A DNA stretch of 61,520 nucleotides, filler included. It is 6 parts of 6 records of this genome, joined end to end, with 100 filler letters (N's around TTAATTAATTAA, not from the genome) between each part and the next. Parts side by side here need not be neighbours in the genome. Positions count along the whole stretch, not along the records: positions 1 to 19,935 come from DRR723986_11080; 5 more parts are not named here. One strand, given 5' to 3'. This document shows positions 1 to 9,328 of this stretch, one piece after another. The number at the start of each line of letters is the position of its first letter. Positions within the stretch are counted from its first letter, which is position 1. The notes below the pieces were generated by a model that made no database searches, was not told the origin of the DNA, and saw only the letters and a list, made by a program, of their open reading frames with translations. Made by a program: the position numbers and the translations under genes.

Positions 1-150
1 GTACATGGTGATTTCGAAACCGAAACGCATATCTACGAATTGTGGGGTGGTCCAGCTCATGTCTATTTCTCCAATGTTGTGATGACAAACAGCAGGTGGT
101 CCTGCCATGAAATAAGTGTACTGAAAGCCGCTCAGGAATTTTGCCCGACT

Positions 151-807
151 TCACTGGGTGATTGAAGGGCTGGTCAGCCCCCACCCGATCGCAAGCTTGG
201 TGAGTTCAATGTCATTGCTCACCTGCAGCTTCTTTTTGATTTGATAGTGAATGTTGTGAATGGTTTTTGCACTTAAAAAAAGTAGCTCGCCAATTTGCTC
301 GGCTGACTGACCGGCCACGAGCAAACACAACACCTCGAACTCGCGGCTGCTCAGCTCATCAAGCCCTCCCCGATTGTCGCGCAATCGCGAGAGCGCCATC
401 AACCGGGTCAAATCAGCACTCATGAAAGTGCGTCCCGACAGGACCTCACCAATGGCGCGCAAAAGCACTTCCGGTCGGCTACTTTTGGTGACATATCCCT
501 TGGCACCGGCTTCCATACATGCACGCGCAAGTTCGATTGAATTGTGCATGGTGAACATTAAAAACTTGACCTCCGGCCAACGCCCCAACACCCGCTGAAC
601 CAGATTCAAACCCACCGGCTCGGGCATGCTGATGTCGCAAATCACCAGCGCGGGCAAATCTTTCTGGCAAGCGGCATAGGCTTCCTGCGCGCTCTCAGCC
701 TCACGCACCTGCTTGAAACCACCCTGTGTTTCCAACAAATGCCGATATCCGGCGCGCACCACAGCATGGTCATCCACCAGCAAAATATTCAGGTCAGCGT
801 TGTTCAT
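151..807 (-). CDS. NarL/LuxR-family DNA-binding response regulator
   Basis: Receiver motifs LLVDDH, ICDISMP, GYVTKS; C-terminal LuxR HTH LSSREFEVL...LFLSAKTIHN; ATGA overlap with the upstream kinase. Confidence 0.93.
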   Translation of the reverse strand: MNNADLNILLVDDHAVVRAGYRHLLETQGGFKQVREAESAQEAYAACQKDLPALVICDISMPEPVGLNLVQRVLGRWPEVKFLMFTMHNSIELARACMEAGAKGYVTKSSRPEVLLRAIGEVLSGRTFMSADLTRLMALSRLRDNRGGLDELSSREFEVLCLLVAGQSAEQIGELLFLSAKTIHNIHYQIKKKLQVSNDIELTKLAIGWGLTSPSITQ

Positions 808-2147
808 GCGGCACCTTTTTCTTGAAAACTCGCAGACACCACAAATTTGTTTTCCTGAAGCTGGGCTTTGAATACACCACCATGAACCCGTACCCTTTCA
901 GCCAATAAATTCAAGCCCATCCCACCAGATGGCACCTGTGTCCCCGCTGGCTGCGGCAAGTCATTCTCAACACGCAATTCAAGCACTCCGGCCTGCAGTG
1001 CCAGGCCAACATTCACAGGCTCGCCCGGGGCTGCATGCCGCCGCACATTGGCCAAACACTCCTCGACAGTTCTGTAAACGCACAATGCGCGGTCCTGGTC
1101 CAGACGATTAAGGGCAGCCGCGTCAAGATTCAGGTTCACTGTCCATCCACTGCCCGAATTGATTTCCCATCGGGTGCACAGGTCCTGAATGGCCATGCCA
1201 AGATCAGCCCCCTCCAGGACAGGCGGGCACTTGTTCACCAGCACCGCCCTCATGCGCTCGAATGCCCCCTCGATTTGCAGTTCGATTTCTTCGAGTTTGT
1301 CCTGAACCTCAGCATCTCCCCCCTTCAGTTGAGCGCGCAGTTGGGCACAATTCACTGCAATCAGGCTCAGGGACTGCCCCAAATCCGCATGCACCAAATG
1401 GGCCAACTCCCGCCGCTCATCTTCTTGCACGTTGAGCAGCTTCATCATCAGCTTTCGGCGGGTTTGAGTCAGGCTCCACAGACGATCGTTCAGTCGGTTC
1501 ACGCCCTGCGCAATGCGGCCAAACTCTTTGGGCTGCACATCGGGAAGTTGTGCAGGTGGAGGACTGTCCTCGGAAATGGCAATCGAGTCGATTTTTTCTA
1601 CCAAGGTTGTCGCTGGCCGCAAGGCGCGACCAATAACCACATAGGTTAAGGCGGCAAGGCTGGCCACGATCAGGGTACTTAACAACAACAAGTCTCGCAG
1701 CGTGTTCCAGAATTTGACCAACACCAGTTGGGGGTCTGCGGTGATGAACAGCTCGCCAAACGGTTGGCCCCACAAACCAACCGGTCGGGGCTCCGATTCA
1801 ATCTGTACGCCGAGTACTCGCATCAACTGGGCTTCAAGCGGGTGGCGTACCAGGTTGTCACAACCCTCTTGTCGCACCTGCCCGTTCCAGCCCTCGTAAC
1901 GTATGCAATAAGGCGCCAGCAACAAACCATACTGACTGCCCACCAACACAGGCGAGCCCTCGATTTCGGGATTTATTTGACGCTTGTACATGGAGTACTC
2001 CACCATCTCGTGCAAGCGAGTAGCGTCGCTGGCCAGGGCATCGTCAACCTCATTGGCTGTTCGCAACACCACGTAGGCAGAAATCAACACCCAGCACAAC
2101 AGGCCCAGGGTGATCATTCGCACCAGCAAATAGCGTTTCAGGTTCAT
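804..2147 (-). CDS. Membrane sensor histidine kinase (HisKA_3/NarX-UhpB type, HAMP)
   Basis: Two TM segments, HAMP-like region, QEDERRELAHLVHADLGQ H-box, EECLANVRRHA N-box, GMGL G-box. Confidence 0.9.
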   Translation of the reverse strand: MNLKRYLLVRMITLGLLCWVLISAYVVLRTANEVDDALASDATRLHEMVEYSMYKRQINPEIEGSPVLVGSQYGLLLAPYCIRYEGWNGQVRQEGCDNLVRHPLEAQLMRVLGVQIESEPRPVGLWGQPFGELFITADPQLVLVKFWNTLRDLLLLSTLIVASLAALTYVVIGRALRPATTLVEKIDSIAISEDSPPPAQLPDVQPKEFGRIAQGVNRLNDRLWSLTQTRRKLMMKLLNVQEDERRELAHLVHADLGQSLSLIAVNCAQLRAQLKGGDAEVQDKLEEIELQIEGAFERMRAVLVNKCPPVLEGADLGMAIQDLCTRWEINSGSGWTVNLNLDAAALNRLDQDRALCVYRTVEECLANVRRHAAPGEPVNVGLALQAGVLELRVENDLPQPAGTQVPSGGMGLNLLAERVRVHGGVFKAQLQENKFVVSASFQEKGAA

Positions 2148-2156
2148 TCAAACAGT

Positions 2157-2831
2157 TTAATCGGCGTTGGGCTGCAAGTGGGCCAGTGCAGCCTCCCCGT
2201 GCAGGCGGGCCGCCAGCTTTCTTGCAACCGAATAATTGCTCACTGCCTCGCCGCGGTTCTGAACACCCAGTCGCCCAAAGGCCTCCTTGATGTGTGCATT
2301 CACCGTGTCGGGACTCATGCCCAATATCTTTGCAATTTCCTTGCCTGTTCTACCCAGGGACACCTGTTCCATCACCTGCGCCTGTTTGATGGTCAAAGGC
2401 TTTGGACTGCCGGGCATCTGAATCAGGCTTTGAAACTCGTTCCGTTGAGAAATTGAATTCAGGTTGACGGAATCGCGTTTCAGAAAACTTTGGACCTGCA
2501 CCATCAATTCCTTGTAATGCTGACTTTTGGACAACAGCAAGGCACCCGAGTTGGCCACCTGCCGTTCTATTTTGGAATCGCCCAAGGCAGTAAAGAAAAT
2601 ACGCAGTGACCTGGAAAAACGCTCAGACACCAATTCAATGACTTCAGCCGGCTTGCTGTTGGGCAAGACCAGATCAGAAACCACCAAATCCACGTCAGCA
2701 GGCTCAATTTCCTGTAGCTGTTCAACAGAATCAACCACCCTTGTATTCAAGCCCGGTACAACAGCAGCAATAATTTCCTCGACGACCATGGCCGAAGTCG
2801 GATGGTCTTCCAGTATCAATAAGTTCTTCAA
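2157..2831 (-). CDS. LuxR-family response regulator
   Basis: ILEDH and VSDLVLP receiver motifs; LTIKQAQVMEQVSLGRTGKEIAKILGMSPDTV HTH; TTG start. Confidence 0.85.
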   Translation of the reverse strand: MKNLLILEDHPTSAMVVEEIIAAVVPGLNTRVVDSVEQLQEIEPADVDLVVSDLVLPNSKPAEVIELVSERFSRSLRIFFTALGDSKIERQVANSGALLLSKSQHYKELMVQVQSFLKRDSVNLNSISQRNEFQSLIQMPGSPKPLTIKQAQVMEQVSLGRTGKEIAKILGMSPDTVNAHIKEAFGRLGVQNRGEAVSNYSVARKLAARLHGEAALAHLQPNAD

Positions 2832-3031
2832 ACCCTTGTCCCCAAAGTGTGGTTGTAGCGTGGCGGCTTTTGATTATTTTTTTGTGAATTATTCGTGCGA
2901 TTATCAATTGAAATGTTTAGTTATGTAAAGAATGCAAACCGGCTTACAAACCTGTCAGCACTTTTCAAAGCGCCGCGTTTCAAGTGGGTGGGCGCAATTC
3001 TCGAGGCGGCCTAATTGACAGGGGAAGTAAA

Positions 3032-3328
3032 ATGTCACACACAGACGATGAGAAAGTAAAAGCAAGACGGGCAGCGTTGGCCAAGGTAGGGCTGGCTGTA
3101 GGGGCTTTGTATGCCGCGCCTGCCATGGTGGGTTTGGCCACTGCGCACGCAGGCAGTCGCTCCAGGCCCAGCCGAAAATCCCGGCCATCCCGATATGACC
3201 GTTACCACACTCAATATGGGCGGGGCTACCGTTCCTCCCGGCCATCGCGCCCAAGCCGATATTCGAGATACTCCCGATACTCGCGGTATTCGCGGGTGAG
3301 CCGCCCCTGGTTCTATATCCGCTTCTAA
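3032..3328 (+). CDS. 98-aa Tat-like/YxxP-leader peptide with Ser-Arg repeat core (putative RiPP precursor)
   Basis: AGGGGAAG RBS before ATG 3032; RR + hydrophobic stretch containing YAAP + AHA site; core with 13 SR dipeptides encoded by varied synonymous codons; 3 bp gap to the next gene. Confidence 0.8.
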   Translation: MSHTDDEKVKARRAALAKVGLAVGALYAAPAMVGLATAHAGSRSRPSRKSRPSRYDRYHTQYGRGYRSSRPSRPSRYSRYSRYSRYSRVSRPWFYIRF

Positions 3329-3331
3329 GCG

Positions 3332-4597
3332 GTGAATGCTGTGACCAAACAAAGCCATGCCTGCCTTCTGATCAGGTTCAAAGGCGTGGCAGGCTACGTG
3401 ATCCTGCCTGACGAGCCGGCCTTGCTCGATGGCATCGCACAGCTTGCGCCCAGCTGGAAATACACTTCCGCAGCCATTGAAGACGATGGCAGCCTGCAAC
3501 GCTGCATCACCAGGGTAGCCAAAAATCAAAACAATCCCTCTACATTTGATGTCGAATCCGTTTACGTCGAAGAGCCGCTCATTGGTTTACCCACAGCCAG
3601 TGCACTGTGTGCCGTGATGGCCGATGTACTTGAGGCACATATTGAGGAAAGCCAAAACCCGATCGCATTGCATGCGGGCGCGGTCGCCATTGGCAACCGG
3701 CTTATCGCAATTACCGGACCGAGACGGGCGGGTAAAAGCACGCTGATTGCAAGACTTTGCGCGGAGCCAGACTTGCAAATTTTCTGCGACGATGTATTGC
3801 CGATCAGCCCACTTGGAGAAGGGGTGGCCTTGGGCGTGGCACCACGTTTGCGCCTCCCCCTGCCGGCAAAGGCAAGCCAACACTTCAAACAATTTGCACG
3901 ACAACACCTGGGGCCACACGACAACCGCTACGGCTACCTGTGCACTACAAACCTGGCTGGTAACGGAACGCGCCGGCCGCTTGGTGCAATCGTGGTGCTC
4001 GACCGGCAAATCGACACCGCGGCCTGCCTGCACACCATGAACGAGGACGATGCCTTGTTCTATGCGCTTGAACAGAACATGGGGCAGTTCGATACGCCTG
4101 CCGAAGCCTTGGCAACAACACAGGCAGTTTTGGGCAAAGTCACTTGTGTTCGACTGGTGTACAGCAACCTGGAAGAAGCCGTACAGCTGCTTCGGAAGGC
4201 GTTTGGTGGTGACGAAGCCATTCATCCTGACGTTCTGGTGAAGCCCGCCCAAGGCTGGACACCGCCAACACCACACGCCCACAGGCCTGTGAACCCTCAG
4301 CAAGTGTTCAAGCGAGCGCCTACCGCAGCCTTGCGCCGTATCGGACAATCTGCCTTTTTGTGGCAAGCCGGAGAACACACCATTTGGCGATTGAACAGGG
4401 TGGGACAAGCTGTGTGGGCGCTGCTCGAAATACCTGGCAATGCCAGGGAGCTGGTCGAAGCGTTGGCCGAGGTATTTGTGCAAGTGCCTCAAGAACAACT
4501 CCAGCATGATGTTGCTGCTTTACTGGGTATTTTGAATGCAGAGGGGTTTGTAGTGGAACTTTCGGACCAATTAGCACTCTTAAACGAAGAGTGCTAA
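3332..4597 (+). CDS. HPr-kinase-like P-loop kinase fused to C-terminal PqqD/RRE domain
   Basis: LHAGAV, Walker A GPRRAGKST, IFCDD acidic motif; C-terminal ~85 aa (IWRLNRVGQAVWALL...LVEALAEVF...LQHDVAALLGILNAEGFV) has the PqqD pattern. Confidence 0.85.
   Translation: MNAVTKQSHACLLIRFKGVAGYVILPDEPALLDGIAQLAPSWKYTSAAIEDDGSLQRCITRVAKNQNNPSTFDVESVYVEEPLIGLPTASALCAVMADVLEAHIEESQNPIALHAGAVAIGNRLIAITGPRRAGKSTLIARLCAEPDLQIFCDDVLPISPLGEGVALGVAPRLRLPLPAKASQHFKQFARQHLGPHDNRYGYLCTTNLAGNGTRRPLGAIVVLDRQIDTAACLHTMNEDDALFYALEQNMGQFDTPAEALATTQAVLGKVTCVRLVYSNLEEAVQLLRKAFGGDEAIHPDVLVKPAQGWTPPTPHAHRPVNPQQVFKRAPTAALRRIGQSAFLWQAGEHTIWRLNRVGQAVWALLEIPGNARELVEALAEVFVQVPQEQLQHDVAALLGILNAEGFVVELSDQLALLNEEC
4556..4582 (+). 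promoter_or_regulatory. Putative sigma-E promoter of rpoH
   Basis: GAACTT-N16-TCTTA about 60 bp upstream of the rpoH ATG. Confidence 0.5.
4571..4597. promoter_or_regulatory. CIRCE element (HrcA operator) upstream of rpoH
   Basis: Exact TTAGCACTC-N9-GAGTGCTAA. Confidence 0.95.
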
Positions 4598-4641
4598 AAT
4601 TAACTGGAAATTGGTTCATTTATTCGGAGAACACCGCAATC

Positions 4642-5568
4642 ATGACCACTGCATTGACCCTTGCTAACACCCGCGCCGCTGGCAGCAGCCTCGCTGTGCG
4701 CGACCCATGGGCACTGGTGGCCCGTGGCCCGCTTGGCAACCTAGATGCCTACATTTCAGCCACACACCAAATTCCCATGTTGTCGCCTGAAGAAGAAGTT
4801 GAGCTTGGCGAACGCCTGCAACGCGACAACGATCTCGAAGCAGCCCGCCGCCTGGTGCTCAGCCACCTGCGACTGGTGGTTGCCGTTGCACGGCAGTATT
4901 TGGGCTATGGCTTGCCCCACGCCGATCTCATTCAGGAAGGCAATATTGGCCTGATGAAAGCCGTGAAGCGATTCGACCCCACGCGTGGCGTGCGGCTGGT
5001 CAGCTTTGCGCTGCATTGGATCAAGGCTGAAATCCACGAGTACATCATTCGCAACTGGCGCATGGTGAAAATGATCACCACCAAGGCGCACCGCAAGCTG
5101 TTTTTCAACTTGAACAGCTTCAAGAAGTACGGTCAGACCCTGACGCCAGATCAAATCAACGAAGTGGCCAGTGAATTGAATGTGCGTCCCGAGGATGTGT
5201 ACGACATGGAGCGCCGCATGGCGGGCCATGAATTCAGCCTGGACCCGGTAGTCGATGTAGACAGCGAAGAAAACAGCTACAACCCCGTACGCTATTTGGC
5301 CGCTGAAGGCGCCGAGCCCACCGAGGTGCTTGAAGGTGTCAACATGGAGCGCCTGCACAGCGAAGGCCTGGACATGGCCTTGGCCAGCCTGGACGAGCGC
5401 AGCCAGCGCATTATTTCCAGCCGCTGGTTGGCCGGTGACAACGCCAAAACCCTGCACGACCTGGCTGCAGAGCTGGGTGTGTCGGCTGAGCGGGTTCGTC
5501 AAATTGAAACCCAAGCCATGAAAAAGATGAAAACCGCTTTGCTGAAATACGAACACGGTGAAGCTTAA
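4642..5568 (+). CDS. rpoH: RNA polymerase sigma-32 factor
   Basis: ADLIQEGNIGLMKAVKRFDP, RNWRMVK, RpoH-box-like RKLFFNL, region 4 GVSAERVRQIE; GGAG RBS upstream of ATG 4642. Confidence 0.96.
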   Translation: MTTALTLANTRAAGSSLAVRDPWALVARGPLGNLDAYISATHQIPMLSPEEEVELGERLQRDNDLEAARRLVLSHLRLVVAVARQYLGYGLPHADLIQEGNIGLMKAVKRFDPTRGVRLVSFALHWIKAEIHEYIIRNWRMVKMITTKAHRKLFFNLNSFKKYGQTLTPDQINEVASELNVRPEDVYDMERRMAGHEFSLDPVVDVDSEENSYNPVRYLAAEGAEPTEVLEGVNMERLHSEGLDMALASLDERSQRIISSRWLAGDNAKTLHDLAAELGVSAERVRQIETQAMKKMKTALLKYEHGEA

Positions 5569-5643
5569 AATCCAGGCTGTAATCTTTTTGGGTGAAAACT
5601 AACCTACACTAAGGGCTTGGCAACAAGCCCTTTTTTTACGACC

Positions 5644-6321
5644 ATGATTGAAGTACATCACCTGGAACACTCACGCTCGCAGCGCATTATCTGGCTGCTT
5701 GAAGAACTTGGCCTGCCATACAAAGTAAAGCGCTACGCCCGCGACGCCAAAACCTACCTGGCCCCACCGGAGTTGCTGAAAATTCACCCTTTGGGAAAAT
5801 CGCCCGTGATTACGGATGGCGACATTACAGTGGCTGAGAGTGGTGCCATTGTGGAATACCTGATCGACAAGGCTGGCGGTAAGTTTCGCCCAGCCGCCGG
5901 TACCCAGGCTCACCGTGACTACACCTACTGGATGCACTTTGCCGAGGGCACAGCCATGCCCCCACTGGTCATGACTTTGGTGTTCAATAAAATTGAAAAT
6001 GCCCCTGTACCCGCTTTGCTCAAGCCAATTGTGCTGCCAATTGCACGCGGTATTTCCAAGCAGGTGAAAAGCAGTTTCATCAACCCCAACCTTGAAAAGC
6101 AGTTCGCTTACATTGAAAGCGTGCTGGCCAAGAATGAGTGGTTTTGCGGCAGCGAAATGACCGGGGCTGATTTCATGATGAGCTTTCCGCTTGAAGCAGC
6201 CATGAGCCGGGCAGAAAGCGTCAGCAGCATGCCTAAAATTGCAGCTTACGTCAAACGCATTCACGCCATGCCCAGCTTCAAAAAAGCGCTGGAAGTGGGC
6301 GGCCCGTACAATTACGCTTAA
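5644..6321 (+). CDS. Glutathione S-transferase (GTT1-like)
   Basis: HHLEHSRSQRIIWLLEEL, IHPLGKSPVI, AESGAIVEYL. Confidence 0.93.
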   Translation: MIEVHHLEHSRSQRIIWLLEELGLPYKVKRYARDAKTYLAPPELLKIHPLGKSPVITDGDITVAESGAIVEYLIDKAGGKFRPAAGTQAHRDYTYWMHFAEGTAMPPLVMTLVFNKIENAPVPALLKPIVLPIARGISKQVKSSFINPNLEKQFAYIESVLAKNEWFCGSEMTGADFMMSFPLEAAMSRAESVSSMPKIAAYVKRIHAMPSFKKALEVGGPYNYA

Positions 6322-6336
6322 ATTCGCTGAACACGC

Positions 6337-7059
6337 ATGAACGCAGCAAGTACGTCTATAGAACAACAGGCAAAAATCACCCAGGTCAACGGCAATGTGC
6401 AGTTGATTCGGGATGGCTTTTTCCTGCCTGCACAGGCGGGCATGGTTCTATTGCCGGGTGACCGCGTTCTCAGCGATGCGGGCACAAAGGCAGTCATTGA
6501 GTTCACTGGCGTGAAGGATGCGCTGATCATCGAGAATGGTGCAGCGGCCACCTTCAACCTTGAAGTGGTTGATATGGACCAGGTGCCCCAGTGGATCGCC
6601 ACAGACCTGTATGGCGAAGGCGTGTACTTTGACGGTCAGCAAACCACCGGCAAAACTGCAAGTACCACTGAAGACGCCCCGGACCTGTTTGGCCTGTTTG
6701 GTACCCAGAGTAGCAGCGGTGAATCAACCGGTTTTCCGGTGCTGGAAAGCGTGGTGTTTTTGGGTGCTACCGCAGCCATATACAGCGACAACGAGGACAA
6801 CGCCAGCACCACTGAAACCACTGGCACGAGTGAATCAGGCAATAACGATTCAGGCACAGGTGGTGGCAACAACAATCCGCCACCAGCACCCCCACCAGAA
6901 ACCGAAGAGCCGGCACCGGGACCACTGGATGCCGTTCTAGGCCCAGTGACCGATGCATTGGACGGTTTACTCTCCACCCTGGGCGCGCCATCCCCCGTGG
7001 GTAGCCTGCCCATACCTTTGCAAGCCAGCAGCAACACGGCCAACCTGCCCACTGAATAA
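6337..7059 (+). CDS. Hypothetical protein with N-terminal FecR/retention-module-like beta domain and low-complexity tail
   Basis: AKITQVNGNVQLIR...AGMVLLPGDRVLS; hydrophobic patch, then T/G/N/P-rich tail. Confidence 0.65.
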   Translation: MNAASTSIEQQAKITQVNGNVQLIRDGFFLPAQAGMVLLPGDRVLSDAGTKAVIEFTGVKDALIIENGAAATFNLEVVDMDQVPQWIATDLYGEGVYFDGQQTTGKTASTTEDAPDLFGLFGTQSSSGESTGFPVLESVVFLGATAAIYSDNEDNASTTETTGTSESGNNDSGTGGGNNNPPPAPPPETEEPAPGPLDAVLGPVTDALDGLLSTLGAPSPVGSLPIPLQASSNTANLPTE

Positions 7060-7181
7060 TCGCGAGTATCTTGGGTCTGCACAACGGAGTTTGAGTCGTG
7101 CATAAAACTATGCAAGGCGCGAATACGCTTATTCACTGAATAAGATGTGGGTTGAACGCGGCGGCAAAGGATCTATTTTTT

Positions 7182-7817
7182 ATGAGCGACAACACACACT
7201 TCGGAATCGATTTTTCCGAGGCGAAAACAATTGTCAGCGCCAACAAACCCAAAGCATTCCCGAGCAAGTCCAAGTTTGATTTAACCAACCTTTACGCCTT
7301 TACAGCACCAGATGGCGTACCACGTGCCAGTGGGCCTTGTGCGCTGGGTACCATTCTTCATCACCATGACATTGGCTGGAGCCACTTGCCCAAAGACAGA
7401 CACGGGCATCCGTTGAACGATCCCTATATTCAGGAAATCATGCGCTGGGCCGAGTGCCCCGACTTGCTGATTGGGTGCATGGGCACCACGCCAGCCGCTT
7501 TGCTGAGGGGCTTAAGAAAAGCAGAACTGCTTGCCGATTGGTATGCAGGCAACACGCCACAAGCCACACTGAACCTTATTGGCAACGAACTTTTTGAAGG
7601 CAGACCTGTGATTGCATTAATCAATCACGGCCCGGAAGGTGAACCGCTGTTGGTGGAATGGGAGGTGGTGTTCAACATTGATTGCGACACGGTGCACTCG
7701 AAACAGGCAAACACGGCGCAGCAGGACAAAAAACGCACCTTGGCCGAATTCATGGCACAAATGGCCATGAACTTGCCGCAACTTAGTTACAGTGTAATCA
7801 CAGCCAGAAAAGAGTAA
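7182..7817 (+). CDS. Hypothetical protein, possibly degenerate C39-like fold
   Basis: Long ORF filling the gap between genes; SGPCALGTIL and GRPVIALI segments. Confidence 0.6.
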   Translation: MSDNTHFGIDFSEAKTIVSANKPKAFPSKSKFDLTNLYAFTAPDGVPRASGPCALGTILHHHDIGWSHLPKDRHGHPLNDPYIQEIMRWAECPDLLIGCMGTTPAALLRGLRKAELLADWYAGNTPQATLNLIGNELFEGRPVIALINHGPEGEPLLVEWEVVFNIDCDTVHSKQANTAQQDKKRTLAEFMAQMAMNLPQLSYSVITARKE

Positions 7818-8420
7818 TTACTTGCCGTCGAGAATTTGCTCGACATCGCTGACCACGGGTGCAGAGTCTGCGTTGTGGCGAACCAGCAAGCGGGCACGAC
7901 CCTGTTGATCGAACACATAGCTTGCAGAGGTATGGTCCATCAGGTAGTTGTCGGGCGAGCTGCCTTCCACCTTGCCGGCGTACACCCGCAAGCCAGCCAA
8001 CAGGGGCTTCAATTCTTCGGAAGATTCCGCGGTAAGTGCATCAAAGGTAGGGTTGAACTGGGGCACATACTTTTTCAGCAACTCGGGCGTGTCGCGCTCT
8101 GGGTCAACTGACACAAACAGCACCTGCAAGTTGTCGCCCTTCTCGCCCAGCTTGGTTTTCACCTCGTTCCACTGTTGCATGGTGATGGGGCAGACATCCG
8201 GGCAATGGGTGTAGCCGAAGAACATGGCCACCACCTTTCCTTGGTAGCTTTCCATGGTGCGCTCTGTGCCCGACAAGTCTTTCAACTTGAAATTGGCCAC
8301 CAGTGAAGATCCGGTGATGTCCGTGTTGGTAAAACTGGCCGGGCCTGCGTTACACGCGGCCAGCAAGGCCACTGCGCCCACCAAAAACCATGTTCTTACT
8401 TGCTTCAATACACTGCGCAT
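7818..8420 (-). CDS. SCO1/SenC copper chaperone lipoprotein
   Basis: LLAAC lipobox, FGYTHCPDVCP, VSVDPERDT, YLMDHT; start re-called at ATG 8420. Confidence 0.93.
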   Translation of the reverse strand: MRSVLKQVRTWFLVGAVALLAACNAGPASFTNTDITGSSLVANFKLKDLSGTERTMESYQGKVVAMFFGYTHCPDVCPITMQQWNEVKTKLGEKGDNLQVLFVSVDPERDTPELLKKYVPQFNPTFDALTAESSEELKPLLAGLRVYAGKVEGSSPDNYLMDHTSASYVFDQQGRARLLVRHNADSAPVVSDVEQILDGK

Positions 8421-8425
8421 ACTGC

Positions 8426-9328
8426 TTACACCGTGACATAGTGATCGACCAATAAGGCCGCGAACAAGAACGCCAGATAGGCGATGGAATACGTGAATGC
8501 CTTTTTCGCCAGGGCATCGCTGTAGTTTTTCCAGATTTTGTAACCATAGCCGATGAAAATGGCATTCAATACCACGGCACTGACCAGGTAAATGAGACCG
8601 CTCATTTTCATGGCATAGGGAATCAGCGTGGTGGCCGCCAGCATGATGGTGTACAAAAACACGTGGAACTGCGTGAATGCAGCGCCATGGGTAACAGGCA
8701 ACATCGGCAGACCAGCGCGTGCATACTCTTGCGTGCGGTACAAAGCGAGCGCCCAAAAATGCGGCGGGGTCCATACAAAAATAATCAGGAACAACACCAA
8801 AGCCTCAGCCGATACACCGTTGGTGACCGCAGCCCAACCCAGTACGGGTGGCATGGCACCCGACGCACCGCCAATCACAATATTTTGTGGCGTATTGGGC
8901 TTTAACAGAAGGGTATAAATAATGGCGTAACCCACGAAGGTGGCCAGTGTCAGCCACATGGTCAAGGGATTCACAAACACATAAAGAATCCACACACCAA
9001 CGCCACCCACCATGCTGGAAAAAACCAGTGTCTGGACTGAATTCAGCTCGCCTCGGGGCAGGGGACGTGCGCGCGTACGCGCCATTTTCGCGTCAATCTG
9101 CTGTTCAACCAGGCAATTGAATGCGGCAGCCGCACCCGCCACTAGCCAGATACCCAAGGTGCCCGCGATCAATACCTGGGCATCGGGCAAATCGGGTGTT
9201 GCCAAAAACATGCCAATAACTGCGCAAAACACGATCAAGGCCACCACGCGTGGCTTGGTCAATGTCCAGTACTGTTTGGCCACGTGAGAAAAACTACCCA
9301 CGGCTTTTGTTTTTTCAACGGATGGCAT
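8426..9328 (-). CDS. cyoE: Protoheme IX farnesyltransferase (heme O synthase)
   Basis: [42 protein letters not shown]. Confidence 0.96.

Follow-up and report, generated by a model that had tools for sequence, protein, structure and literature searches.

Genome-mining tools find RiPP-type pathways by searching for the genes of dedicated proteases and exporters, the components by which such pathways are recognised. Among described systems, the LPP peptides of Bacillota (LppA/K/B/S/D/N, 2026) come closest to the locus reported here. Their clusters encode a discrete RRE together with an SpI-like leader peptidase, an MsbA-like pump and an NTP transferase of their own (PMC13381572). The LPP paper gives the RRE docking motif as [Y/W]xxPx[L/V/I/A/F/Y], and it describes the polyphosphorylation of Ser by HprK-like kinases in both LPP and paeninodin-type peptides, as well as the modification of one Ser by the known HprK-like RiPP kinases (PMC13381572). 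On the export side, a review describes the Tat pathway as tolerating small unfolded hydrophilic substrates, and REMP chaperones as using Tat signal peptides as platforms (PMC13673990). Among the papers found, none deals with a natural Tat-type RiPP leader. The locus described here consists of a precursor gene and a single enzyme gene. Its leader resembles both a Tat signal and the docking motif of the kinase-like enzyme; because of this double resemblance, a dedicated protease and pump may be dispensable here, their work being taken over by the general export machinery.

The gene pair and its two products

The window, that is, the whole stretch of DNA that was analysed (61,520 nucleotides, filler included), carries the pair near one end, with the enzyme gene starting three bases after the precursor gene (3332). 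The features are as follows:

3020..3027, + strand: Shine-Dalgarno-like AGGGGAAG run before the ATG, read off the sequence
3032..3328, + strand: precursor peptide gene, 98 aa plus stop (ATG at 3032, stop codon 3326-3328)
3032..3151, + strand: leader, residues 1-40, with an n-region containing RR, an uncharged h-region and an AxA c-region
3065..3070, + strand: twin-arginine codons R12 and R13, invariant in 39/39 aligned precursors and present in 61/61
3110..3127, + strand: Y27-A-A-P30-A-M32, predicted RRE docking motif of the [Y/W]xxPx[L/V/I/A/F/Y] type
3143..3151, + strand: A38-H39-A40, signal-peptidase-I-type AxA site, with the predicted cut before G41
3152..3325, + strand: core, 58 aa, with 14 Ser, 17 Arg, 9 Tyr and 5 Pro, and SRPSR and SRY repeats
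3332..4597, + strand: fusion enzyme, 421 aa, HprK/PEPCK-fold P-loop domain plus C-terminal RRE
3347..4231, + strand: kinase-like domain, residues ~6-300, by fold match and a weak TIGR04352 match
4301..4567, + strand: RRE (PqqD-like winged helix), residues 324-412, PF05402 E 8e-12

The initial annotation had read this leader as twin arginines, a hydrophobic region and an AxA site, with YxxPxM embedded and its Tyr codon at 3110; both the sequence and the coordinates match exactly. RR (12-13) is followed by an uncharged Ala/Gly/Leu stretch with YAAPAM, and then by AHA. The codons lie at 3110-3112 for Y27 (TAT), 3119-3121 for P30 and 3125-3127 for M32, and that of G41, the predicted mature N-terminus, begins at 3152. 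The core behind it has a net charge of about +17. Upstream, the Shine-Dalgarno-like GGGGA run lies 7-11 nt 5' of the precursor ATG, and a promoter scan of the + strand upstream of the peptide gene returned no sigma-70-like promoter. Contigs from RNA-labelled libraries of one study span the gene pair; contig depth and contig ends can neither rank the genes nor prove a transcript start, and we do not count these contigs as evidence.

The enzyme has a predicted structure of high confidence (pLDDT 90.3). By VIA-align, it matches the HprK/P fold over residues 109-300 (Z 12.0-12.1; 1ko7 and 1jb1 each at Z 12.1) and the PEPCK fold over residues 6-342 (Z ~12). At the sequence level, a phmmer comparison of the kinase core with PDB sequences gave generic P-loop matches only, such as RecA and ABC ATPases, and the enzyme scores 24.4 bits on TIGR04352 against a cut-off of 200; the HprK assignment is thus made because of the fold, the sequence profile being weak. 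The invariant residues of the domain are H114, the P-loop G129-T137 (G134, K135, T137) and D153-D154.

The C-terminal domain has its nearest solved relatives in TbiB1 (5v1v, Z 12.8) and TfuB1 (6jx3, Z 12.5), lasso B1 proteins that bind leaders with YxxPxL, the structural matches spanning 85-88 of 85-88 residues, and profile searches returned 5v1u (E 1.3e-6), 9x8z (LppB, 1e-5) and 6jx3 (2e-5). N355, W362, L378, F382 and D393 are its conserved residues. LppB D70 forms a hydrogen bond with the leader Tyr and LppB N33 fixes the kink at the leader Pro (PMC13381572). D393, invariant in 27/27 enzymes, aligns with LppB D70, and N355, conserved in at least 90%, aligns with LppB N33; the LppB pocket residues V35, C39, I56, Y60, V63 and V67 align with V357, V361, L378, F382, V385 and L390. 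Judged from this alignment, the residues with which the RREs of the solved LPP and lasso complexes grip the leader Tyr and Pro are retained in the RRE domain of the window.

The gene pair occurs at 61 distinct places in Limnobacter, one gammaproteobacterial family and one alphaproteobacterial family, the count referring to distinct places that have sequence upstream of the enzyme gene; each of them has a same-strand precursor ORF that ends just before the enzyme gene, and the enzymes are 30-81% identical to that of the window. More widely, clustering at 50% identity leaves 566 representatives of the enzyme family at E<=1e-30, and the family is present in 34 of 301 sampled genomes of one alphaproteobacterial family and in 32 of 201 of one gammaproteobacterial family; the window precursor has 8 homologues at E<=0.01. 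A contig search with a single protein as query returned one locus only. TatC (PF00902) was over its cut-off in all five carrier genomes tested, including the nearest, G001.

Within +-1.5 kb of the pair at 59 loci, no third gene is common to the three lineages, the enzyme itself being found at 59/59, and the pair has no conserved protease or exporter gene next to it. A Pfam scan of nine window ORFs gave two-component regulators, RpoH and a GST, and two ORFs have no family. The sole other cross-lineage cluster near the pair (+-1.5 kb, 59 loci) is an antisense shadow ORF.

Conservation of the leader and variability of the core

The pattern RR-x(11-17)-YxxPx[LMFV]-x5-AxA is present in 61/61 distinct homologous precursors and is therefore beyond chance. 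The initial annotation had staked its reading beforehand on the conservation of YxxP among homologous peptides, and the motif is kept in all 61, across three lineages. In an alignment of 39 of the 61 precursors, the only invariant columns are M1, R12, R13, Y27, P30, A38 and A40; G20 is conserved at 95% and L16 at 87%, and all remaining leader columns vary. Y and P are the sole invariant residues of the h-region (39/39), and we therefore rejected YxxP as a chance feature of an Ala-rich h-region. Five positions after Y, the 61 precursors have L (39), M (11), F (10) or V (1). The 18 residues preceding AxA contain no charged residue in 58/61 precursors and one in the other 3/61.

The leader has the features of a Tat signal: RR in the n-region, an uncharged and moderately hydrophobic h-region, a small-x-small site and no Pro at +1. 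The textbook Tat motif is S/T-R-R-x-F-L-K, from which the n-region of the window, K-A-R-R-A-A-L-A-K, departs. The family consensus is (S/T)-R-R-x-hydrophobic-L-x-(R/K), with S or T at position 11 in 67% and L/A/V/M/F at position 15, the window itself having A-R-R-A-A-L.

The profile matches are mostly low-scoring. The window leader has no match to Pfam TAT_signal (PF10518) or TIGR01409, and the only profile that it matches is that of the Iro signal region, below threshold (19.7 bits, cut-off 100). Among the 39 leaders, the commonest NCBIfam matches are TIGR02811, a Tat-target family (22/39, every one sub-threshold), TatB_1 (6/39) and TIGR01409 (4/39 at E<=1), all of them Tat-named; the profiles of Iro and MelC1, which we take to be Tat substrates, match three leaders each. 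One relative of 14 passes the TIGR01409 cut-off (17.1 against 16.7) and PF10518 matches 2/14 (E 0.3-0.45); no Pfam family is significant on the 14 precursors, and the Tat-profile matches of the relatives lie nearly all below the curated cut-offs.

Behind this constant leader, the cores are hypervariable Ser-rich repeats that cannot be aligned, and they have no single conserved Ser position. Their net charge spans -16 to +22 under the same leader type, which fits a charge-tolerant export route. A Cys pair ends 12 of the 26 alphaproteobacterial cores, which by inference suggests an oxidising compartment.

Two proposed successive tasks of the leader and the alternatives

The gene pair, its anatomy, the pattern of conservation, the folds and the absence of a conserved third gene are established by our analysis. 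We propose, with moderate confidence drawn from the sequences, that the locus is a two-gene peptide-modification cassette in which the 40-residue leader performs two tasks in succession. In the cytoplasm, the C-terminal RRE of the enzyme would bind the YxxPx(L/M/F) segment of the leader as an added beta-strand, as its homology to lasso B1 proteins and LppB suggests. Docking of the leader would position the Ser-rich core next to the HPr-kinase-like P-loop domain, which would phosphorylate core serines; the phosphorylation would shift the window core from about +17 towards neutral or negative. After release, the same leader would be read as a twin-arginine signal, with its (S/T)RRx-hydrophobic-L, Ala/Gly-rich h-region and AxA. 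TatABC would then export the unstructured hydrophilic peptide, and the housekeeping signal peptidase I would cut after A40. With TatABC and signal peptidase I handling export and cleavage, a dedicated protease or pump would not be needed, though an unlinked protease or transporter may take part. As long as the RRE holds the leader, it would also shield the signal peptide, in the manner of the TorD/DmsD-type chaperones of cofactor-containing Tat substrates; conversely, the hydrophobic leader held by the RRE might never be freed to TatBC. A dual leader of this kind had been put forward in the initial annotation; it is supported by all the computational tests that we ran, and from them we infer binding, phosphorylation and Tat export.

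A stronger form of the proposal, which we put forward only tentatively, makes the RRE a substrate-specific Tat gatekeeper. It would mask the signal until the serines are phosphorylated, and its release would license export, so that the products would be secreted polyphosphoserine peptides. In basic cores such as that of the window, phosphorylation would flip the charge from about +17 to negative before release.

Four other readings of the same leader need to be weighed. An unlikely one keeps the cassette and the RRE docking and makes the leader a Sec-type (or SRP/YidC-type) signal, with RR as merely a strong n-region. The lack of a TAT_signal or TIGR01409 match in the window leader and the mostly sub-threshold Tat-profile matches of its relatives would suit such a signal, and AxA and an uncharged h-region occur in both routes. 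However, Sec n-regions usually swap K and R freely, whereas RR is invariant in 61/61 precursors and is replaced by KR or RK in none (0/61). The h-region is Ala/Gly-rich with a mean Kyte-Doolittle value of 1.18, and an Ala/Gly-rich h-region of such hydrophobicity is typical of Tat. Furthermore, many cores begin with dense positive charge, as in the window (+17), and dense positive charge at the mature start blocks Sec export in E. coli. We regard it as quite unlikely, too, that the leader serves for recognition by the RRE and the enzyme only, with RR...AxA serving the enzyme or an unlinked protease, and the product remaining cytoplasmic or leaving through an unlinked transporter. RiPP leaders are normally not secretion signals, and no part of our model is better supported than the RRE contacts, two points that speak for recognition alone; but the ~20 uncharged residues between the invariant RR and AxA would be unneeded for a knobs-into-holes contact of the LppB type, and the LPP leader motif contains H, Q, E and T (PMC13381572). 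In addition, related TIGR04353 loci retain RR, the h-region and AxA without the Tyr, and the Cys pairs of 12/26 alphaproteobacterial cores speak against recognition alone as well.

The N-terminal segment could also be an uncleaved membrane anchor that tethers the Ser-rich tail, phosphorylated or not, to one face of the inner membrane. The segment from RR to AxA has ~24 residues, long enough to cross the membrane. By the positive-inside rule, basic tails prefer the cytoplasm, so the very basic Limnobacter and gammaproteobacterial tails would favour the side where the kinase is. Against an anchor, which we hold to be very unlikely, the invariant small residues at -3 and -1 and the absence of Pro from +1 (0/61 precursors) argue for cleavage; tail charges from -16 to +22 do not fit a single topology rule, and P30 and G20 within the segment would weaken a stable helix. 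Finally, since low-complexity secreted proteins are common, the small ORF could encode an ordinary one of these, the enzyme acting elsewhere and YxxP being conserved independently of the RRE. This is highly improbable given that the ORF strictly adjoins the enzyme gene on the same strand in 61/61 places and three lineages, with a gap of 3 nt in the window, and that Y and P, the sole invariant h-region residues, make up the very motif to which the nearest RREs of solved structure bind.

If the leader with two successive tasks is the right reading, one short sequence would serve a peptide-binding domain, the Tat receptor and signal peptidase I one after the other, and the Tat route would become directly testable for the export of covalently modified unstructured peptides. 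It would also provide a minimal portable design to make and secrete phosphorylated peptides. A two-gene cassette with a general export signal as its leader would escape genome-mining searches for dedicated proteases and exporters, and the Ser-repeat cores, strongly acidic to strongly basic, point to a class of secreted phosphopeptides. Should the gatekeeper form hold as well, TatABC and signal peptidase I would take over both export and leader removal from a natural peptide-modification pathway, the first of its kind, and its polyphosphoserine products would be a bacterial counterpart of secreted metal- or mineral-binding phosphoproteins.

Comparison with known systems

With the lasso systems (TbiB1, TfuB1; paeninodin-type), the window system has in common the RRE fold, the [Y/W]xxPx[L/V/I/A/F/Y] motif and an HprK-type kinase. 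An Asn-synthetase-like cyclase (C) and a transglutaminase-like B2 protease are absent from the scanned ORFs of window positions 1-9000 and are not conserved neighbours. The spacing of the motif differs somewhat among the systems: counted from the predicted cut, the window leader has Y-14/P-11, and lasso leaders have Y-17/P-14. In the LppA leader these residues are at Y-16/P-13 (PMC13381572).

The likeness to LPP is in the linear precursor with a conserved leader containing YxxPx(V/L) and a variable core, the binding of the motif by a PqqD-type RRE, the modification of Ser by an HprK-like kinase, and the removal of the leader by signal-peptidase-I chemistry, here predicted (PMC13381572). Kinase and RRE are separate in LPP and a single polypeptide in the window system; unlike in LPP, an SpI-like peptidase, an MsbA-like pump and an NTP transferase are not conserved beside the pair. 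The window leader is built as a twin-arginine signal, without the rest of the LPP motif, and LPP has a single defined Ser, whereas the family of the window has long Ser-repeat cores. The hosts of LPP are Bacillota and those of the window family are Pseudomonadota; the words 'Proteobacteria', 'Pseudomonadota' and 'twin-arginine' do not occur in the LPP paper (PMC13381572).

The HPr-rel-A system (TIGR04352 HprK-related kinase A with a TIGR04353 PqqD family protein) likewise pairs an HprK-like kinase with PqqD, but as separate proteins, unlike the fusion in the window. The window enzyme has no TIGR04353 match at E<=0.01 and is below the TIGR04352 cut-off; in one fused homologue (G167), the PqqD part scores above the TIGR04353 cut-off (36.3 against 35), and the families are therefore related. 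In 16 of 30 TIGR04353 loci, the ORF directly upstream is Tat-like: RR and AxA flank an uncharged h-region, in which the Pro is kept and the Tyr is absent. Since these ORFs have the export-type frame without the Tyr, the frame and the aromatic knob are separable.

The proposed use of the leader resembles that of the REMPs (TorD, DmsD, NapD), in which a cytoplasmic protein uses the Tat signal of one substrate as a maturation platform, as the review describes (PMC13673990); the likeness would be functional only. The REMPs have an unrelated fold and serve cofactor insertion, in contrast to the covalent modification of an unstructured peptide by an RRE-kinase fusion that we propose here.

The precursor gene and its surroundings

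The first 40 codons of the precursor gene, read again from the sequence, carry RR, Y27/P30/M32 and A38-H-A40, and the dual-featured leader described in the initial annotation, apparently a Tat signal and RRE-recognition sequence in one, is confirmed as an observation. The window holds the following features:

7-11 nt before the precursor ATG, plus strand: GGGGA run, read from the sequence
3032-3328, plus strand: precursor ORF, 98 codons, read from the sequence
3065-3070, plus strand: R12-R13 of the leader
TAT at 3110, plus strand: Y27, with P30 and M32, within an Ala/Gly/Leu/Val stretch of the leader
ending at 3151, plus strand: A38-H-A40, the leader end
3332-4597, plus strand: fusion enzyme, 421 aa, starting three bases past the precursor stop
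upstream flank, minus strand: LuxR-type response regulators and a HisKA_3 kinase
downstream flank: RpoH, a GST and two ORFs that match no Pfam family

The 58-residue core is made up of SRPSR and SRY repeats (14 Ser, 17 Arg, 9 Tyr and 5 Pro; net charge about +17). No cyclase, protease or transporter was found among the window genes flanking the pair. rpoH directly follows the enzyme gene (4591-5568; TIGR02392, 378 bits), its longest ORF sharing the enzyme's final codons, and a sigma-70-like promoter match (9/12 plus a TG extension) lies inside the enzyme 3' end at 4571-4600. The ORFs 6337-7059 (240 aa; C-terminal half Pro-rich and low-complexity) and 7152-7817 (221 aa) match no Pfam family at E<=0.01. 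RNA-library contigs concern the stretches 2998-3307 and 3278-4805: in one RNA study, contigs from runs X9 and X11 start at 2998/2999, about 33 nt 5' of the ATG with adapter sequence immediately before, and a contig from run X7 spans 2700-3207 uninterrupted; as these data are contigs, they speak to neither transcript start nor relative expression.

The peptide as query retrieved only 8 close homologues, one named Limnobacter sp., in which the leader is more conserved than the core. The enzyme as query gave 151 homologues at E<=0.001, with Limnobacter, Rhodobacterales genera and Halomonas/Vreelandella as named sources, and an exhaustive profile search gave 566 representative clusters of its family at E<=1e-30. 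Within the window's genus, 4 of 25 genomes carry the fusion, as do 34/301 of one alphaproteobacterial family and 32/201 of one gammaproteobacterial family. When every ORF of 90 aa or more lying up to 1.5 kb to either side was clustered over 59 loci, the enzyme (59/59) was the only cluster common to all three lineages, namely Limnobacter and these two families; the second largest, at 31 loci, is an opposite-strand ORF inside the enzyme gene, which is read as a shadow ORF, and all other clusters are limited to single lineages.

Precursors were surveyed by running the enzyme HMM over the fetched loci and collecting same-strand ORFs that end just before the enzyme; an RR...Y..P ORF was found at 64 of the 71 loci with an HMM match. 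The loci lacking one are contig ends that leave 178, 2 and 67 nt upstream (L031, L036 and L053), partial matches of another family (L013 and L022), and a single place in genome G065 (L012 and L024), where the enzyme match contains two in-frame TGA codons. The enzyme at this last place (G065:C1:463468-467591) is a divergent fusion matched in two pieces (E 3.8e-31 and 7.9e-21), and the cassette may be decaying, given the TGA codons and the absence of an upstream RR...Y..P ORF. With L001, L002 and L008 left out, which are one place in G001, the genome nearest to the window, where the enzyme has 99% identity to that of the window, the distinct precursor set numbers 61, window included.

Leader conservation and core variability

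The pattern RR-x(11-17)-YxxPxX-x5-AxA is present in all 61 distinct precursors. Loss of YxxP among homologous peptides was the outcome that the initial annotation had named as speaking against its reading; the motif is kept in 61/61. Five residues past the Tyr stands L (39 precursors), M (11), F (10) or V (1); position -2 from the predicted cut holds Q, H, E, R or K, Pro never stands at +1 (0/61), and the 18 residues before AxA are uncharged in 58 of 61. For the leader alignment, 39 of the 61 were picked so that each of the three lineages was represented; excluded were 22 that nearly duplicated another precursor, had an uncertain, GTG/TTG or upstream start, or contained N runs. Its invariant columns are M1, R12, R13, Y27, P30, A38 and A40, with G20 conserved at 95%, L16 at 87% and the remaining leader columns variable.

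The cores are hypervariable and of low complexity, with Ser (occasionally Thr) at two- to five-residue intervals as the common theme. Repeats are SRPSR/SRY in Limnobacter, SYSRP in gammaproteobacteria, and GGS, SAA, SEP, TSD, SRP and TRP in alphaproteobacteria; Ser content ranges from 9 to 40% and net charge from -16 to +22. A Cys pair at the core end occurs in 12/26 alphaproteobacterial, 0/4 Limnobacter and 0/30 gammaproteobacterial precursors. The pair is spaced by 10-13 residues, for example as a C..(G/N)G(T/S)(W/F)D......C loop; examples, among others, are:

L044:2790-3113, minus strand
L046:2806-3183, minus strand
L048:2834-3184, minus strand
L041:1019-1372, plus strand
L042:1082-1411, plus strand

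Basic cores finish in conserved hydrophobic or amphipathic tails that differ by lineage: SRPW(F/I)(Y/T)IRF in Limnobacter, WERDGVIE(I/L)R(L/I)SR(V/L)LPRW or DDPV.I.EDI.FG.PERRW, often with terminal PSRW, in gammaproteobacteria, and P.W(V/L)R..FGG in alphaproteobacteria. Such tails might serve as a further recognition element or form the product's functional end. Precursors showing them are:

window 3299-3325, plus strand
L010:1133-1486, plus strand
L073:2685-3116, minus strand
L009:2788-3123, minus strand

Fold of the enzyme and probable docking of the leader

Pfam places a PqqD domain at the enzyme C-terminus (residues 348-407, E 8e-12) together with weak P-loop matches, and the NCBIfam match to HprK-related kinase A is weak (24.4 bits; cut-off 200). 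The AlphaFold2 model draws on 27 homologues and has high confidence (mean pLDDT 90.3, pTM 0.86). Its best Foldseek matches are PEP carboxykinases, and in a VIA-align re-comparison of the 1000 chains ranked highest by Foldseek, this match covers the entire stretch 6-342 (Z about 12), residues 109-300 resemble HPr kinase/phosphorylase catalytic domains (1ko7 and 1jb1, each Z 12.1), and residues 324-412 resemble lasso RREs (TbiB1 5v1v, Z 12.8, 88/88 residues aligned; TfuB1 6jx3, Z 12.5). Against PDB sequences, the family profile matched the RREs 5v1u (1.3e-6), 9x8z (1e-5), 6jx3 (2e-5) and 9x90 (6e-4), and also the HPr(Ser) kinase 3tqf (E 0.017). Among 27 enzymes, invariant residues include H114, G134, K135, T137, D153 and D154 in the P-loop region and W362, L378 and D393 in the RRE.

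According to a study on the linear polyphosphorylated peptides (LPP) of Bacillota (PMC13381572, 2026), [Y/W]xxPx[L/V/I/A/F/Y] is the motif recognised by lasso RREs, and the YxxP of the LPP leader is essential for binding to LppB, the discrete RRE. Leader Y-16 is pocketed there by V35, C39, I56, Y60, V63 and V67 and hydrogen-bonded to D70, N33 fixes the kink at leader P-13, and F74 separates two pockets. A HMMER alignment of the family profile with 9x8z puts V357, V361, L378, F382, V385 and L390 of the window enzyme at the Y-16 pocket positions, in that order, and D393, N355 and L397 at D70, N33 and F74; among the 27 enzymes, D393 never varies and N355 is kept in at least 90%. By this alignment, the enzyme's predicted RRE retains the docking site seen in its closest solved relatives. 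Within the hydrophobic stretch of the leader, nothing but YxxP is invariant, and judged by this homology the leader very probably docks to the RRE.

Probable export route and comparison with known peptide systems

RR, the uncharged h-region and AxA are as strictly conserved as YxxP, and the leader consensus is (S/T)-R-R-x-hydrophobic-L-x-(R/K). The NCBIfam profiles most often matched by the 39 leaders (E<=1), all under curated cut-offs, were TIGR02811 (formate-dehydrogenase-region TAT target; 22), a TatB-associated family (6), TIGR01409 (4), Iro (3) and MelC1 (3). Tat is part of the name of the first three, and Iro and MelC1 we take to be Tat substrates. One relative reached the TIGR01409 cut-off (17.1 against 16.7); the sole profile match of the window leader is the Iro signal region (E 8e-4). 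TatC was found in 5/5 carrier genomes checked. Sec poorly tolerates dense positive charge immediately after the cleavage site, and the occurrence of the same leader on strongly acidic to strongly basic cores fits a charge-indifferent route. It is likely that the leader is a cleaved export signal. According to a 2026 review (PMC13673990), Tat tolerates small unfolded substrates without exposed hydrophobic stretches, and REMP chaperones take Tat signal peptides as platforms in maturation; the word 'RiPP' is absent from it.

Of 401 genomes sampled from the phylum, 55 have a match above cut-off to TIGR04353, a discrete PqqD family. A same-strand ORF with RR, two hydrophobic residues, at most 2 charges and AxA lies directly upstream in 16/30 fetched loci (L083, L085-L088, L090, L091, L094-L096, L098, L101, L103, L106, L110 and L111), its leader keeping a Pro and lacking the Tyr, as in RRxLLKG..AGVPAIITLQSGAALA. 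By these Tat-like ORFs, the export-type frame is shared across a wider, uncharacterised superfamily; what marks the fused family is the aromatic knob of lasso/LPP type. The ORFs before the discrete genes are larger, with Cys-containing mature parts and leaders of the form RRRKLLKGL.AGVPAIITLQSGAALA or RR.LMLGAVGASAI.SIRPALAQ. In a related split system at L013/L014, a kinase-like ORF (386 aa) and a separate PqqD-region ORF accompany a small ORF (L013 2662-2994 and L014 2737-2994, plus strand) with the Tat-like leader DRRKFLAAC...TPPAV...AIA, without Tyr, a Gly/Ser core and the tail PNWLER(L/F)LDWLF, which resembles alphaproteobacterial precursor tails.

In the main texts of open-access and bioRxiv papers, no natural RiPP-type leader acting as a Tat signal was found described; PMC5686179 offers engineered Tat display of lanthipeptides as speculation only. 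Within this literature, only PMC13381572 brings together any two of PqqD, Tat signal, HprK and polyphosphorylated peptides, and proteobacterial clusters may be among those in its Supplementary Data 1 and 2. The texts found on HPr kinase, PqqD and precursor phosphorylation are lasso-peptide papers, and the remaining twin-arginine/RiPP texts concern staphylococcal bacteriocin-gene transfer and the nisin synthesis complex.

The dual-use interpretation survives all computational tests run, including YxxP conservation. We propose that the RRE would dock the leader YxxP, the core would be phosphorylated, Tat would export the product and signal peptidase I would cut the leader off; as a complete chain, this sequence of events is somewhat favoured on balance. 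The pair lies outside the LPP and lasso families because it lacks their defining genes and has a fused RRE. It most likely works like the LPP system, with the difference that export and processing would be left to the general machinery.
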